Assembly (NCBI GenBank): GCA_964545795.1
Contig: CAZJGC010000003.1
Location: 738-64,737, forward strand
Direction of reading: 5' to 3'
DNA length: 64,000 nucleotides
DNA from: an uncultured archaeon
GTDB taxonomy: Archaea > Aenigmatarchaeota > Aenigmatarchaeia > Aenigmatarchaeales > DAIDAN01
A program made the translations under genes and the position numbers. Under the pieces are notes generated by a model. That model was not told the origin of the DNA and made no database searches. It worked only from the letters and a program-made list of their open reading frames with translations. Below are positions 20,241 through 63,015 of this stretch, piece by piece (the stretch's first letter is position 1; each line of letters starts with the position of its first letter).

Positions 20241-21944
20241 ATGTTATTTGAAGTTGTTGACAGGGATGCTGCAGGCAGGATTGGGAAATTAAAGATAGGA
20301 AAATATAAAATTAAAACCCCTAATATAGCGGTTGTAATAAATCCCAATAAGATGGTTGTGCCTATAAAAGAATTGAAAAAAATGGGAGTTGAAATAATAA
20401 TTACAAATTCTTATATAATAAACAATAATCCTGAAATCAGAGAGAAAGTGTTGGAAACAGGTTTGCACAAATTTTTTGGTTGGGACGGCCCAATTTACAC
20501 AGATTCTGGAACATATCAGATGTATTCGCGGAACATAAAAGACATTTCGCAAACGCAGATTCTGGAATTTCAAAGAACAATTGGTTCTGATATTATAACT
20601 CCTGTTGATGTTTTCACAACGCCGTTTGATTCAAAACCTGAAGCAAGAAAGAAATTAGAGGAGACAATAAAAAGAGTAAAAACAGCGAGAAAGACAGTGA
20701 AAACTGACCTTGTTGGGCCCATACAGGGAGGAAGTTTTATTGATTTAAGAAAAAAGGCTTGCAGAGAAATAGAAAAGGCGGGTGTTGATGTTTTTGCAGT
20801 AGGCGGCATTGTGCCATATATGGAATCTTATAAATTCACTGAATTATGCGAAACAATAATAACATGCAAGCAGTCGCTTCCTTCAAACAAGCCTGTTCAC
20901 GCTTTTGGAGCAGGGCATCCTATGGTTTTTTCGTTGCTTGTTGCATGCGGGTGCGACTTGTTTGATTCAGCTATGTATTCTTTGGCAGCAGGCAGAAATT
21001 CATATTTGACTGCAAGCGGCACAATGCATCTGGAAGATTTAGCGGAATTTCCATGTTCATGTCCTGCATGCATTAAAACAACACCATCTGAAGTAAAGAG
21101 AATGCAAAAGGAGGATAGACAGCAATTTCTTGCAAAACATAACCTATTTTCAACAATGCAAGAGTTAAAAACAGTTAGAAACGCGATTTCAAATAATAAT
21201 TTATGGGAACTTGTGCAGAGGCGTTCTTCTTCAAATCCAAGACTTTTTGAGGCATTTTTAACAATTTTAAAGAAGTATAAAGATTATTTTTTAGAGAAAG
21301 ACGTTTTCGGTAAGAAATCAGCTTTTGTATATAATAGTGAGGCATCAAAGTATAGGCCAGAGGTTTTTAAAGCAAAAGAAAGAATAAAAAATGTTAAATC
21401 AAAGAAATATTTCAAAAAAGAACCTTTTGGTAAAATACCTTACGAATTATACTTTGTCTATCCTTTTTATCAAAGCATTATACCTTTTTATAACGAGAAA
21501 AAACATGTGAAAATAGATGTTAAAGATATGATTAGAGCGGTTCTAGATTATCAATTTGGAAAAGGAACAAATGATAGAATAAAAGAATTTGAGGTAGAAA
21601 AATCAAGAAAAACAGGCATTATAAGGAGAATTTATCATAAAAACAAACTTATAGGCACTTTGAGGTCTTGGGATAATTTTCTTTTGCCAAGTATTTATGG
21701 CGCTGAATTATTAAAGATAAAAAAAGTTGTTGTAAAAGATAGGGATGCTGCCGAGTTTGTAAGCAAGGGCAGTGATTTGTTGGCAAAATTTGTTTATAAG
21801 GCAGATAAAATAATGCCTGGGGAGGAAGTTGCCGTGAAATATAAAAAGAAGATAATAGCTGTTGGCAGGGCATTGCTGAACTATAAGGAAATGAAGGAAT
21901 TTAATTATGGTGTTGCTGTAAAAGTGAGAAACCATATAAAATAA
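20241..21944 (+). CDS. tgtA: archaeosine tRNA-guanine transglycosylase (ArcTGT) with C-terminal PUA domain
   Basis: N-terminus MLFEVVDRDAAGRIGKLKIG is typical of ArcTGT; 567 aa matches TGT plus C1/C2/PUA. Confidence 0.85.
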   Translation: MLFEVVDRDAAGRIGKLKIGKYKIKTPNIAVVINPNKMVVPIKELKKMGVEIIITNSYIINNNPEIREKVLETGLHKFFGWDGPIYTDSGTYQMYSRNIKDISQTQILEFQRTIGSDIITPVDVFTTPFDSKPEARKKLEETIKRVKTARKTVKTDLVGPIQGGSFIDLRKKACREIEKAGVDVFAVGGIVPYMESYKFTELCETIITCKQSLPSNKPVHAFGAGHPMVFSLLVACGCDLFDSAMYSLAAGRNSYLTASGTMHLEDLAEFPCSCPACIKTTPSEVKRMQKEDRQQFLAKHNLFSTMQELKTVRNAISNNNLWELVQRRSSSNPRLFEAFLTILKKYKDYFLEKDVFGKKSAFVYNSEASKYRPEVFKAKERIKNVKSKKYFKKEPFGKIPYELYFVYPFYQSIIPFYNEKKHVKIDVKDMIRAVLDYQFGKGTNDRIKEFEVEKSRKTGIIRRIYHKNKLIGTLRSWDNFLLPSIYGAELLKIKKVVVKDRDAAEFVSKGSDLLAKFVYKADKIMPGEEVAVKYKKKIIAVGRALLNYKEMKEFNYGVAVKVRNHIK

Positions 21945-22709: not shown

Positions 22710-23243
22710 TCACGTTAATTTCACGCTGTAAATTTTCTCATATACAGAACCATCTTTGGTAAGCGTTGATTTAAATAGTGAAATTTCTGACACAATTAAT
22801 ATTCCAAAATCCGTATTTTTGAATTTCTCCAGAATTTCTTTTATGTTGTGGTTTGCTGATTTAACTCTTGCTAGTGTTATGTGGGGTGCATGATTTTTCT
22901 CCTTTTCAAAACCTAATTCTTTAAGTTTGTTGTCAATTGCAACTGCTATATCATAAAATGTTTTGCTTTCAGCGCCTGCCCATACAACGCGTATGTAATT
23001 GTTGTTTGGAAAACAACCAATTCCTTTTATATTCATTTGAAATTTTTTGAATTTAGAGCATGTGTTTTTGATTATGTTTTTTATTTGTGTAATTTTGTTT
23101 TCATTGACATTGCCAAGGAATTTCAGTGTAATATGGAGGTTCTCCTGCGGCACAATCTTTATATCTCCTTCTAATTTGCGTTGTATATCTCTTAGTTTCA
23201 GTTTCAATGATTTATCCAAATCAATAGCAATAAAGCATCTCAT
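22710..23243 (-). CDS. thpR: RNA 2',3'-cyclic phosphodiesterase (2H family, ThpR/LigT)
   Basis: Two H-x-T-x motifs (HITLKF and HITLAR). Confidence 0.85.
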   Translation of the reverse strand: MRCFIAIDLDKSLKLKLRDIQRKLEGDIKIVPQENLHITLKFLGNVNENKITQIKNIIKNTCSKFKKFQMNIKGIGCFPNNNYIRVVWAGAESKTFYDIAVAIDNKLKELGFEKEKNHAPHITLARVKSANHNIKEILEKFKNTDFGILIVSEISLFKSTLTKDGSVYEKIYSVKLT

Positions 23244-35545: not shown

Positions 35546-35585
35546 CAGAATGTTTTTATATTTTAAATCCAATTTCTTTTACTAT

Positions 35586-35688
35586 AGCCCCGTAGTCTAG
35601 TGGCCAAGGATTACTGGCTCTGGATATTTAAGAGTTACCAGTAGACCCAGGTTCGAATAATCTTTATAAATTCCTGGCGGGGCTACCA
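35586..35688 (+). tRNA. tRNA-Gln (anticodon CUG) with two introns: 13 nt at 37/38 and a 14-nt insertion in the T-loop (near 59/60). CCA is encoded.
   Basis: Manual cloverleaf: acceptor AGCCCCG/CGGGGCU, anticodon stem ACUGG/CCAGU, anticodon CUG at 35620-35622, T-stem CCAGG/CCUGG with T-loop UUCGAAU. Introns at 35624-35636 and 35659-35672. Confidence 0.65.
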
Positions 35689-36056
35689 TTTATTGGTTTT
35701 ATAATCGGTTCAATATATTTTTCATATTTTTTATAGTCAATAACTGGATTTTCAGAATATTGGTTTAAACTCACGCTAAGGTTAGTTTGTTTTATTTCAG
35801 AAAACAGGAAAGAATTTTTTACAGTTATAATTTTTTGTTTGTCCAATTCCCAATAGACGGGTCTTATAAGTTTTTTTCTTTTGTTTTCTTCAACAGTGTA
35901 ACCATAGTCTTTAATGGTTTTACAGGCGTGATATTCTAAATTTCCAAGGAAGTCGTCTAAATACATTGGATTATTTTCAAGAATTTTTATGGCTTTGTTT
36001 TCTATTTTTTTGAAAAAACTTTCATACTCAAAACCATTATTCAAACGAACCCTCAA
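35664..36056 (-). CDS. hypothetical protein; its 3' end overlaps tRNA-Gln antisense
   Basis: 130 aa with protein-like composition. The last 8 codons overlap the tRNA. Confidence 0.3.
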   Translation of the reverse strand: MRVRLNNGFEYESFFKKIENKAIKILENNPMYLDDFLGNLEYHACKTIKDYGYTVEENKRKKLIRPVYWELDKQKIITVKNSFLFSEIKQTNLSVSLNQYSENPVIDYKKYEKYIEPIIKPINGSPARNL

Positions 36057-49120: not shown

Positions 49121-49666
49121 TTAGGGTGTAATTCTGACTATTTCAAAGTATACGACTTTATCATCTTTATCTACCAAAGCCCAGAGCATATGCGCTCTTA
49201 TGTTATGCGCAAGCCTGACTGCTCTGGAAAGTTCCTGAAAACCGCAGGAATAATTTTTTGGAACAGCAAAAACAATCCATTTTGTATGTTCTGCCGCGCT
49301 TTTTGGACCTCTTTTCAAAGGTTTTACTCCTTTATTATAGACGCGGAAGTCGCAGCCAAACTTGAATCCTGTTCTTGTTGGATATGATTTGTTTCTAAGG
49401 TCAGTGTAAACAATAAATCTTTCCCTGAATCTGTTGTCTATAGAGCAGCAATAATCAAAAAATTCATTAAATCCCATTTTTTTATTGTTGTTGTAAATTG
49501 TTATTTTCTTTTTTTTATATAGAAATGCTGCTTCCACAAGAGATAATTCAAGCCTGTCTTCTCTAAGCCTTCCATAATAATCATTTTCAAATATGTTTTT
49601 TGCTGCATTTCTGTCCCATATAAAAACCTTGTCCTGAGCAATCTGCGCTTTTATCATAATCATCAC
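49121..49666 (-). CDS. endA: tRNA-splicing endonuclease subunit (EndA family; retains the Tyr and His of the catalytic triad)
   Basis: YTDLRNKSYPTRTGFKFGCDFRVY...AEHTKWIVFAV...RLAHNIRAHMLWALVD matches the EndA catalytic-domain pattern. Confidence 0.8.
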   Translation of the reverse strand: MMIMIKAQIAQDKVFIWDRNAAKNIFENDYYGRLREDRLELSLVEAAFLYKKKKITIYNNNKKMGFNEFFDYCCSIDNRFRERFIVYTDLRNKSYPTRTGFKFGCDFRVYNKGVKPLKRGPKSAAEHTKWIVFAVPKNYSCGFQELSRAVRLAHNIRAHMLWALVDKDDKVVYFEIVRITP

Positions 49667-49669
49667 ATT

Positions 49670-50188
49670 TTATATCTTCAGTTCATTTACAGCATAATAA
49701 GTTATGTCTGTGTCGTTGTCTACAACTGCCCATAGCGCAGTTGTTTTAATGTTTTGTGAGAGTTTTGTTGCTCTCTCAAGCATGCTAAAATCCGAAGGAT
49801 AATCTTCAGATGCAACAAAAACTATCCATTTTACTTTTTCTGCTTTATTTGGTTTTGCACCCCTGTCATAAACCCGAAGGTCCATGCCTTTAAATCCGAC
49901 TCTGACGGGGAGCCCCCTTTCTCTCATGTCTTTATAAACATAATAAAGATTAGTGAAATTATTGATTTTTGAGCAGCAGTAGTGATAAAAGTCAGAGAAT
50001 GATAATTTCTTGTTTTTAATAAATACTTCAAGCCTTCCTCTTTCCTGCAAAAGAAGAGCTTCCACAAGAGATAATTCAAGATTTCCTGATTTTATGTTTC
50101 CATACCATCCGTTGTCAAAGTATTCTTTGCCTTCTTTATCTTCTACTATTACTTTTATGTCTTCAATTCTTCCTTGCATAGAATTCAC
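49670..50188 (-). CDS. tRNA-splicing endonuclease paralogous subunit (EndA family; the His position is substituted, so it is likely the structural partner)
   Basis: YKDMRERGLPVRVGFKGMDLRVY...KVKWIVFVAS...ALWAVVD. It is a paralogue of the adjacent gene, with a KAEKVKW segment in place of AEHTKW. Confidence 0.7.
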   Translation of the reverse strand: MNSMQGRIEDIKVIVEDKEGKEYFDNGWYGNIKSGNLELSLVEALLLQERGRLEVFIKNKKLSFSDFYHYCCSKINNFTNLYYVYKDMRERGLPVRVGFKGMDLRVYDRGAKPNKAEKVKWIVFVASEDYPSDFSMLERATKLSQNIKTTALWAVVDNDTDITYYAVNELKI

Positions 50189-52352: not shown

Positions 52353-52440
52353 TGGCGCCTGGGACAGGACTCGAACCTGCGACCACCTGGTTTCTGTATA
52401 AATTAACAGCCAGGTGCTCTACCTGCTGAGCTACCCAGGC
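52353..52440 (-). tRNA. tRNA-Asn (anticodon GUU) with a 12-nt canonical intron at 37/38; CCA is encoded
   Basis: Acceptor GCCUGGG/CCCAGGC, D-arm GCUC-AGCAGGUA-GAGC, anticodon stem CCUGG/CCAGG, anticodon GUU at 52405-52407, intron at 52392-52403, T-loop UUCGAGU. Confidence 0.85.
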
Positions 52441-61599: not shown

Positions 61600-63015
61600 A
61601 TGTTCTTCATAAGAACTATTATGTCAGTAATGATTGGGCTGGAAACCCATGTGCAGTTGAGCACTAATACAAAACTTTTCTGCGGCTGTTCTCTTAAGAG
61701 AATTAGCGAGGCTAAACCCAATACCAGATGTTGTCCGACATGTTTGGGCATGCCAGGTTCAAAGCCAAGATTAAATAAATCTGCAATAGAGGCAGCAGTA
61801 AAAATAGCGCTTGCTTTAGAATGCAAAATTAACAGGAATTTTTTCTTTTCAAGAAAAAGTTATTTTTATCCTGATATGAGCAAAAATTTCCAGATAACGC
61901 AGTATGAAGTGCCTATAGCAGAGTCTGGCGTAATGAAAATGGAGAAAAAAGAAATAAGGATAAGAAGAATAAATATAGAAGAAGACCCTGCAAAGCTTGT
62001 TCATGTTGGCGGTTCAATAACAACAGCCAAAAATGTTCTTGTTGACTACAATCGCTCAGGCATTCCTTTGTGCGAAATTGTGACAGAACCGGATTTTGCA
62101 TCGCCTAAAGAAGCAAGAATTTTTCTGCAAAAACTTGCTATGGTTCTGAAATATCTTAAGGTTTTTGAGGCTGATGAATTTTCATTAAAAACAGATGCGA
62201 ACATATCAATAGAGGGCGGGGAGCGCGTGGAAGTCAAAAATATAACAGGCTTCAGGGAAATAGAAAAAGCGCTGAATTATGAAATAGTCAGACAGAGAAA
62301 CATTATCAGAACAGGCAGGAAAATAAGCAGAGAGACGCGTGCATGGGATGCAGTTTCAAATGTTACAAAACCTCTGCGAACAAAGGAAGGAGAAGATGAT
62401 TATGGATATATTTTTGAGCCTGATTTAACTGAAATAGAACTGACGGAAAATCAGATAGTTGGTATAAAAGAAAAGCTGCCTGAACTGGCTCATCAGAAAT
62501 TTGAGAGATACCAGAAAGAATTTTCTATAAGCAAGGAACTTAGCTACTCAATAGCTTCTGATATAGAAATGGCGCAGTTTTTTGAGGATATTGCAAAGAA
62601 CATTGAACCAAAGTTTGCTGCATCATGGATTCTTGTGCTTAAGAAAATATTGAATTATAATGACATTATGGTTAGTGAAATGAAAATGGGAAAAAATGAT
62701 TTTGAAAAACTGCTGAATGTTATAAAATCCGGAAAACTTTCAGACAGGGCAGGAGAACTTGTTTTAAGGGAAATTGTTAATAGTCCGGAAAAATTAGATG
62801 AAACAATAGAAAGGTATATAAAGACAAATTCCGAAGAACTTGAAAAAGTTGTTGATAATGTGCTTGAAAAAAACATGAAGGCTGTTAATGATTACAAGTC
62901 AGGAAACAAGGCTTCTATAGAGTTTCTTATTGGTCAGTCAATGCGCGAAACAGGAGGCAAGGCAGATGCAAGGGAAATAAGAAAAATAATTGAAAAGAAA
63001 TTAAATAACATTTAA
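61600..63015 (+). CDS. gatB: Asp/Glu-tRNA(Asn/Gln) amidotransferase subunit B
   Basis: IGLETHVQLSTNTKLFCGCS N-terminal signature; 471 aa with a YqeY-like C-terminal domain. Confidence 0.85.
   Translation: MFFIRTIMSVMIGLETHVQLSTNTKLFCGCSLKRISEAKPNTRCCPTCLGMPGSKPRLNKSAIEAAVKIALALECKINRNFFFSRKSYFYPDMSKNFQITQYEVPIAESGVMKMEKKEIRIRRINIEEDPAKLVHVGGSITTAKNVLVDYNRSGIPLCEIVTEPDFASPKEARIFLQKLAMVLKYLKVFEADEFSLKTDANISIEGGERVEVKNITGFREIEKALNYEIVRQRNIIRTGRKISRETRAWDAVSNVTKPLRTKEGEDDYGYIFEPDLTEIELTENQIVGIKEKLPELAHQKFERYQKEFSISKELSYSIASDIEMAQFFEDIAKNIEPKFAASWILVLKKILNYNDIMVSEMKMGKNDFEKLLNVIKSGKLSDRAGELVLREIVNSPEKLDETIERYIKTNSEELEKVVDNVLEKNMKAVNDYKSGNKASIEFLIGQSMRETGGKADAREIRKIIEKKLNNI

Follow-up and report, generated by a model that had tools for sequence, protein, structure and literature searches.

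The stretch of DNA analysed in this study (64 kb, hereafter the window) carries, at positions 35586–35688 of the plus strand, a tRNA-Gln(CUG) gene of 103 nt that is interrupted by two inserts. Its parts follow one another in the order exon 1 AGCCCCGTAGTCTAGTGGCCAAGGATTACTGGCTCTGG, intron 1 ATATTTAAGAGTT, exon 2 ACCAGTAGACCCAGGTTCGAA, insert 2 TAATCTTTATAAAT and exon 3 TCCTGGCGGGGCTACCA, and the features of the locus are as follows:

35555–35562, plus strand: TATA-box-like TTTATATT, putative archaeal promoter, centred ≈27 nt upstream of the mature 5' end (read from the sequence).
35586–35623, plus strand: exon 1, positions 1–37, with acceptor strand AGCCCCG, D-arm, 5' strand of the anticodon stem and C32 U33 C34 U35 G36 G37 (ARAGORN on the edited sequence; covariation).
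35624–35636, plus strand: intron 1, 13 nt ATATTTAAGAGTT, site 37/38 (ARAGORN intron call; fold; BHB scan).
35637–35657, plus strand: exon 2, positions 38–59, with A38, 3' strand of the anticodon stem, variable region AGAC, T-stem strand CCAGG and T-loop U54 U55 C56 G57 A58 A59 (ARAGORN; covariation).
35658–35671, plus strand: insert 2, 14 nt TAATCTTTATAAAT, site 59/60, putative eroded relaxed BHB (homologous introns; fold; BHB scan).
35672–35688, plus strand: exon 3, with U60, T-stem strand CCTGG, acceptor strand CGGGGCT, discriminator A73 and encoded CCA (sequence; ARAGORN; covariation).

As the region is A/T-rich, the TATA-box-like sequence is weak evidence of a promoter. Neighbours of the tRNA-Gln gene are a DUF498 gene and, on the opposite flank, a small winged-helix-like ORF; the host is A/T-rich (34% G+C), and the named best matches of the window proteins are from Aenigmatarchaeota MAGs. 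An ORF of 130 aa having no Pfam match (35664–36056, minus strand) overlaps the last 25 nt of the tRNA-Gln gene; its identification as PyrI, whose gene occupies that place in the related locus L163, was rejected, the two proteins being unrelated. The window also encodes an archaeosine-type tRNA-guanine transglycosylase with a PUA domain, a LigT-like 2',5'-RNA ligase/phosphoesterase and a GatB-type amidotransferase subunit, the coordinates listed for these RNA-related genes being 20241–21944 (plus strand), 22710–23243 (minus strand) and 61600–63015 (plus strand). A scan of the window for hidden interrupted tRNAs retrieved only chance matches in coding sequence, e.g., at 62574–62713.

When the raw sequence 35586–35688 was submitted to ARAGORN (default and -i) and to Rfam (gathering threshold and E ≤ 10), no tRNA was called. 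Removal of the 14-nt T-loop insert was enough for ARAGORN to call a tRNA-Gln(CUG) in which position 37 is followed by a 13-nt intron, and once both inserts were deleted the call was a clean cloverleaf of 76 nt, having G37 and an encoded CCA, in agreement with what an earlier note on this DNA, made from the sequence, had proposed. The doubly spliced product is identical at 71 of 73 positions to the intronless tRNA-Gln(CUG) gene of a DPANN MAG (L056). It shows the features of an archaeal elongator tRNA-Gln, namely stems of 7/4/5/5 bp, the anticodon CUG and the A1-U72 pair, with all 21 stem pairs intact (21/21) and the universal nucleotides U8, A14, G18 G19, U33, G53 U54 U55 C56 A58 C61 in place. 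When 13 tRNA-Gln genes were aligned, pairing in the cloverleaf reached 99.3% and both partners had changed in 10 of the pairs, a result that none of 500 shuffles of the same alignment (0/500) matched in any of the observed measures. The exons have a G+C content of 59%, against 34% for the genome. The tRNA-Gln(CUG) gene is thus real, far beyond chance. No second copy of a tRNA-Gln(CUG) gene was found within the 64 kb window, where CAG is the majority Gln codon (203 CAG vs 129 CAA in 40 ORFs), and the exact 5' half of the gene, used as query against metagenomes, gave no match.

Intron 1 is a standard BHB/BHL intron. The 13-nt canonical intron at 37/38 indicated by the earlier note was recovered both as an ARAGORN intron call and as a stem, 3-nt bulge and 4-bp helix that together form the minimum-energy fold of the arm (−7.7 kcal/mol), and it was the best match of a generic BHB scan over the 103 nt. 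In particular, the anticodon stem is extended by a 4-bp helix CUCU/AGAG, in which C32 U33 C34 U35 pair with the intron sequence AGAG, and the 3' splice site lies within the 3-nt bulge UU↓A38 (here and below the arrow marks the splice site). The 5' splice site falls 2 nt past the helix, in a 9-nt loop, and is therefore BHL-like, owing to the absence of the inner helix h'. A second interrupted tRNA gene of the window shows the same architecture (CUGU/ACAG), likewise without inner helix h':

52357–52440, minus strand: tRNA-Asn(GUU), with a 12-nt intron at 37/38 and encoded CCA (Rfam, 62.9 bits).

ARAGORN -i miscalls this tRNA-Asn gene as Ser(aga). In both anticodon-loop introns (35624–35636 and 52390–52405) G and C occur only where they pair with the G or C of positions 32–35, the remainder being A/T, whereas the T-loop insert (35658–35671) contains one C and no G at all. 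This difference suggests that selection for a BHB on the insert is weak or gone.

The second insert required closer definition. As to the 14-nt T-loop insertion claimed in the earlier note, its length and its loop were confirmed and its placement was corrected. A T is repeated, so that the 14 nt fit equally well at 59/60 (TAATCTTTATAAAT, 35658–35671) or at 60/61 (AATCTTTATAAATT), these being the only two registers that restore the loop UUCGAAU; the 59/60 register is favoured on account of the BHB geometry and of 42 homologous introns, all of which share it. In this placement the insert separates 59 from 60, the T-stem forms the outer helix, and the 3' end of the insert (...ATAA AU↓U60) might provide a 3-nt 3' bulge (A U↓U60). 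The 4-bp (or at least 3-bp) central helix that U54–G57 would form with intron positions −3 to −6 is absent: only two of the four pairs are possible, U54-A35669 and U55-A35668, while C56 is opposite U (T35667) and G57 opposite A. The predicted probabilities of the central-helix pairs are ≈0.01 or less. A forced BHB-like fold has an energy of −1.1 kcal/mol vs −5.6 kcal/mol for the minimum, and in the predicted minimum fold A59 and the first three intron bases are taken up in a 4-bp A-U hairpin, so that the 5' splice site is buried in a stem. Accordingly, the BHB that the earlier note had suggested looking for at the T-loop junction was not found by folding and by a generic BHB/BHL scan, given that no more than two A-U pairs are possible and that the fold containing them lies 4.5 kcal/mol above the minimum. 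In the computation, the single substitution of T35667 by G brings the motif back as the minimum-energy fold.

Other ways of excising the insert were tried and rejected. The registers 56/57, 57/58, 58/59 and 60/61, together with the generic BHB/BHL scan of the 103 nt, gave either a product that is not a tRNA or no more than two central pairs in the T-arm, and a good score was obtained for the 37/38 motif alone. Pairing between the two introns was also considered; A/T-rich complementarity is present, yet the resulting bulges miss the boundaries of the T-loop insert.

Site 59/60 turned out to be occupied in 42 other distinct tRNA-Gln inserts, 10–38 nt in length, from archaeal genomes and metagenomes (loci L009, L037, L044, L055, L065, L120–L162 and L165). 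These were collected by two scans based on exon context alone, with no intron feature demanded, plus the syntenic locus L165, and in all of them the exon context is identical to that of the window, CCAGGTTCGAA preceding and TCCTGGCGGGGCTA following the insert. Where a genome record is labelled, it belongs to a MAG of Woesearchaeota, Nanoarchaeia, Aenigmatarchaeota or Methanosarcinales, the others being unlabelled metagenome contigs. The homologous inserts follow a common scheme in which the T-stem serves as outer helix, U54 U55 C56 G57 find their partners at intron positions −3 to −6, a 3-nt bulge xx↓U60 contains the 3' site, and an inner helix is usual. Intron positions −3 and −4 are purines able to pair with U54/U55 in 42/42 inserts, position −5 is G, pairing with C56, again in 42/42, and position −6 is C or T in 31/42. 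The partner of U54–G57 is mostly CGAA, with the variants TGAA, CGAG, CGGG, AGAA, GGAA, AGGA and AGGG. The recurrence of inserts obeying the logic of a BHB at this place makes 59/60 a bona fide intron site.

With T35667 at the position of the conserved G, the window insert stands alone among the 43 in lacking the C56-G pair. A low predicted pair probability in isolation is found also for approximately a quarter of the 42 homologous introns, so that pair probability alone fails to single out the window insert, the distinguishing fact being the missing C56-G pair. Besides having T instead of G at −5, the window insert differs from the 42 in being short (14 nt) and without inner helix; a 10-nt insert at 59/60 without inner helix is found in L160. 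The closest forms are those of the Aenigmatarchaeota-like relatives, which are themselves relaxed, with G57 unpaired (..AGAAAU↓U, ..GGAAAU↓U), the L160 insert being one of them. This subset resembles the window gene in sequence around the 3' site (..AGAAAT↓T vs ..ATAAAT↓T) and in having the CCA encoded, and a single base (T35667 to G) separates the window insert from the relaxed form of the relatives. We conclude that, as judged from the modelled folds, the insert is a putative remnant of a relaxed "hBH" motif, eroded by one substitution.

Many of the tRNA-Gln genes bearing an insert at 59/60 also have introns in the D-loop and in the anticodon loop. The genes in L165, L146, L157 and L162, which bear the intron, have an intronless twin in L067. 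A second tRNA, with acceptor strand GCCCCCG, carries a 36-nt intron at 59/60 in L165 (11744–11853, minus strand) and in L166 (10168–10277, minus strand); in L165 this intron starts with ATAAG and ends with GAAAT, like the Gln intron of the same genome. From these sequences, a spread of the intron between tRNA genes is hinted at in the L165 and L166 genomes.

In the nearest relatives, located via the DUF498 gene, the same slot is taken by a tRNA-Gln(CUG). The syntenic ortholog of L163 (2688–2763) has no insert and shows an encoded CCA and a compensated T-stem (GTCAG/CTGAC). The ortholog in L165 (5890–5998) has a 33-nt intron at 59/60; in both L165 and L166 the tRNA-Gln gene directly precedes DUF498 and contains the 33-nt insert at 59/60 without an anticodon-loop intron.

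As regards the enzyme expected to act on such genes, the earlier note had placed a splicing endonuclease ≈14 kb away, and indeed two adjacent EndA paralogs were identified at 49121–50188, 13.4–14.5 kb downstream of the tRNA-Gln gene:

49121–49666, minus strand: EndA alpha-like, 181 aa (Pfam PF02778 and PF01974; alignment to 3iey_A and 1a79; family alignment).
49670–50188, minus strand: EndA beta-like, 172 aa, 41% identical to the alpha-like protein (PF02778 and PF01974).

Two distinct subunits of EndA fold are thus encoded by separate genes. The best PDB match of the 181-aa protein is the EndA alpha subunit of N. equitans (3iey_A, E 2.6e-29). Its Tyr110 and His127 align with Y115 and H125 of the M. 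jannaschii enzyme, and Ala158 stands where M. jannaschii has the catalytic K156. The position of K156 is Ala or Ser in the alpha-like protein and in all of its 120 best homologs, the motif being AH[NT]IR[AS] vs HSVRK; the triad Lys is hence replaced by Ala/Ser across this DPANN clade, with Tyr and His kept, and the properties of the alpha subunit are not simply readable from the enzymes studied so far. The alpha-like protein also has a basic loop of the Nanoarchaeum type (V114 K115 P L K118 R119 G P K122), its sequence GVKPLKRGPKS aligning with G89 V90 I91 P92 K93 K94 G95 K96 R97 S98 of NEQ-EndA. In the latter enzyme this loop has been defined and tied to broad specificity (PMC3488258; named L3 in PMC5829648). 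By alignment, the alpha-like EndA carries the inserted NEQ-type specific loop (L3), a putative determinant of broad range.

The beta-like EndA appears from its sequence to be a non-catalytic subunit. Twelve homologs were aligned with the 172-aa protein. It and 11 of them have Glu or another residue in place of the His and show a deletion of the basic loop; the remaining homolog, P0178, retains loop and His and is of the alpha type. The beta-like family is conserved, and in many MAGs its members and those of the alpha family occur on shared contigs. An M54 peptidase gene followed by the beta and alpha genes in tandem is found in the window and in L170 (2470–3642), whose alpha-like EndA is 66% identical to that of the window, while L171 (3001–3549) and L172 encode just one EndA there, with 61% identity for the single-EndA relative. 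These comparisons suggest a lineage-specific tandem duplication, which may have led to an (alpha-beta)-type enzyme within Aenigmatarchaeota. [quoted passage not shown] That a heteromeric enzyme is needed for cleavage in the T-loop, as maintained in the earlier note, was a deduction that found no support, broad specificity being tied in the literature to inserted loops more than to the type of subunit (PMC5829648).

Taken together, we think it rather probable that the insert is still spliced by a broad-specificity EndA and that the gene is functional, although twice interrupted. The 37/38 intron would offer the endonuclease its stem, 3-nt bulge and 4-bp helix. The 14-nt insert would be a shortened, A/T-saturated descendant of a BHB intron found widely at 59/60 in DPANN tRNA-Gln genes, having kept the T-stem as outer helix, the possible 3' bulge and two A-U pairs but not the G partner of C56. 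The tandem-encoded alpha/beta EndA, with its Nanoarchaeum-type loop, might still cut such a minimal hBH-like site, after which an RNA ligase would join the exons into a normal 76-nt tRNA reading CAG. We infer removal from the perfect preservation of exons so rich in G+C in an A/T-rich genome, from CAG being the commoner codon and from the introns of the clade being already relaxed. On the contrary, judging from the predicted folds, nothing in the insert looks selected for pairing, which argues against splicing.

Alternatively, the gene may have been inactivated recently, a G-to-T change at 35667 or a deletion that shortened the intron having destroyed the motif, CAG being left to a different tRNA-Gln (either a further CUG copy or a UUG tRNA acting by wobble). 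The unique loss of the C56-G pair would be the expected trace of such an event, as would the instability of the BHB-like fold and its rescue by one substitution, and the syntenic L163 ortholog indicates that the lineage can have an intronless copy. However, decay has not reached the exons, whose 21 pairs, universal positions and CCA persist despite a strong A/T bias; in addition, the codon to be read is the commoner one, the gene sits in a conserved syntenic slot and the window holds no second copy. Inactivation is therefore considered unlikely.

It is also conceivable, but improbable, that the insert is no BHB substrate at all and that the gene is nonetheless functional, either with a T-loop of 21 nt being retained or with the alpha/beta EndA, having the basic loop and no triad Lys, removing an insert flanked by a bulge and two A-U pairs. 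In the second case, recognition would extend well below the known minimal BHB/BHL requirements. Retention as such would give a mature tRNA with an enlarged T-loop, in which a small A-U hairpin follows A59 and U54–A58 are left free for the T-loop core. The T-loop core U54 U55 C56 G57 A58 is in fact intact upstream of the insert, the minimum-energy fold assigns to the insert a 4-bp hairpin of its own, and BHB selection is not visible on it, in contrast to the perfect conservation of the exons. With an extra hairpin at the tRNA elbow, however, the packing of the D-loop against the T-loop and the factors that bind the elbow would probably be disturbed, and no precedent for a tRNA retaining such a T-loop hairpin was found in the literature consulted. 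Furthermore, the site of the relatives contains either 0 nt or unrelated sequences of 10–38 nt that form BHBs, so the insert is not conserved as a structural element; a T-arm fold keeping the 14 nt and supported in relatives, which according to the earlier note would have spoken against an intron, was accordingly not encountered, there being no conserved alternative fold of the arm that retains the insert. Retention thus appears very improbable. Finally, that T35667 or the whole short insert is an assembly or consensus error in the MAG is hardly credible even if the anomaly hangs on a single base, since an independent assembly, that of Logan for run SRR9849955, matches the window without a difference along 181 nt that include the tRNA-Gln gene, which excludes an assembler artefact and, as that assembly may share reads with the one of the window, leaves only an error at the read level.

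With splicing by EndA as the preferred reading, the locus adds an Aenigmatarchaeota-like example, with an unusually degenerate splice motif, to the known multiply interrupted tRNA genes. It belongs to a class of genes missed by standard finders, ARAGORN and Rfam having both failed on it. It also represents a natural test case, in which site 59/60 is, among orthologs, empty, occupied by a well-formed relaxed BHB or, as in the window, occupied by a remnant one base off. In combination with the tandem alpha/beta EndA of the clade, this offers a simple system for the minimum structure that an archaeal splicing endonuclease needs. Should the insert prove unspliced, it would show an intron killing an essential tRNA, or being tolerated in it. 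The weight of the case is modest unless RNA showed retention or BHB-independent removal.

Multiply interrupted archaeal tRNA genes, introns at 59/60, relaxed motifs and broad-specificity EndAs are already established (PMC4090602, PMC3239211, PMC3488258, PMC5829648, PMC6379350), and no specific description of tRNA introns in Aenigmatarchaeota-like archaea was found in the literature. The T-loop intron had been regarded in the earlier note as non-canonical; the term is correct, 59/60 being a listed non-canonical position of archaeal tRNA introns (PMC4090602), but the position is not unusual in itself, as it is a known site of which an ARMAN-2 example is cleaved in vitro (PMC3239211, PMC3488258). 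Multiple BHB introns, at 37/38 and at non-canonical sites, have been catalogued in Thermoproteales, Nanoarchaeota and ARMAN (PMC4090602, PMC4033280, PMC3239211). The window gene is similar to these in its short introns of the protein-spliced type at 37/38 and 59/60, in its normal cloverleaf and in the presence of an EndA of the type linked to disrupted tRNA genes; it differs from them in the 59/60 insert, which has two A-U pairs in place of a 4-bp central helix, and in the Aenigmatarchaeota-like host.

A closer parallel, and a precedent for the preferred reading, is the relaxed 59/60 intron of ARMAN-2 tRNA-Cys, cleaved in vitro; in the pre-tRNA-Cys(GCA) this hBH intron is cut by the epsilon2 EndA of ARMAN-2 (PMC3239211, PMC3488258). 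Likened by description, the two have in common the T-loop position, a relaxed motif well formed on the 3' bulge side only, and a DPANN host, whereas the enzymes differ, being of the epsilon2 type with an ASL loop in ARMAN-2 and a tandem alpha/beta pair with an NEQ-type loop in the window. With the (alpha-beta)2 EndA of Nanoarchaeum equitans (PDB 3IEY; PMC3488258, PMC5829648) the window pair shares the basic loop around the catalytic His and a second, non-catalytic paralog; it is distinguished from it by the adjacency of the two genes and by the Ala/Ser that the alpha-like protein and its 120 best homologs have at the place of the catalytic Lys.
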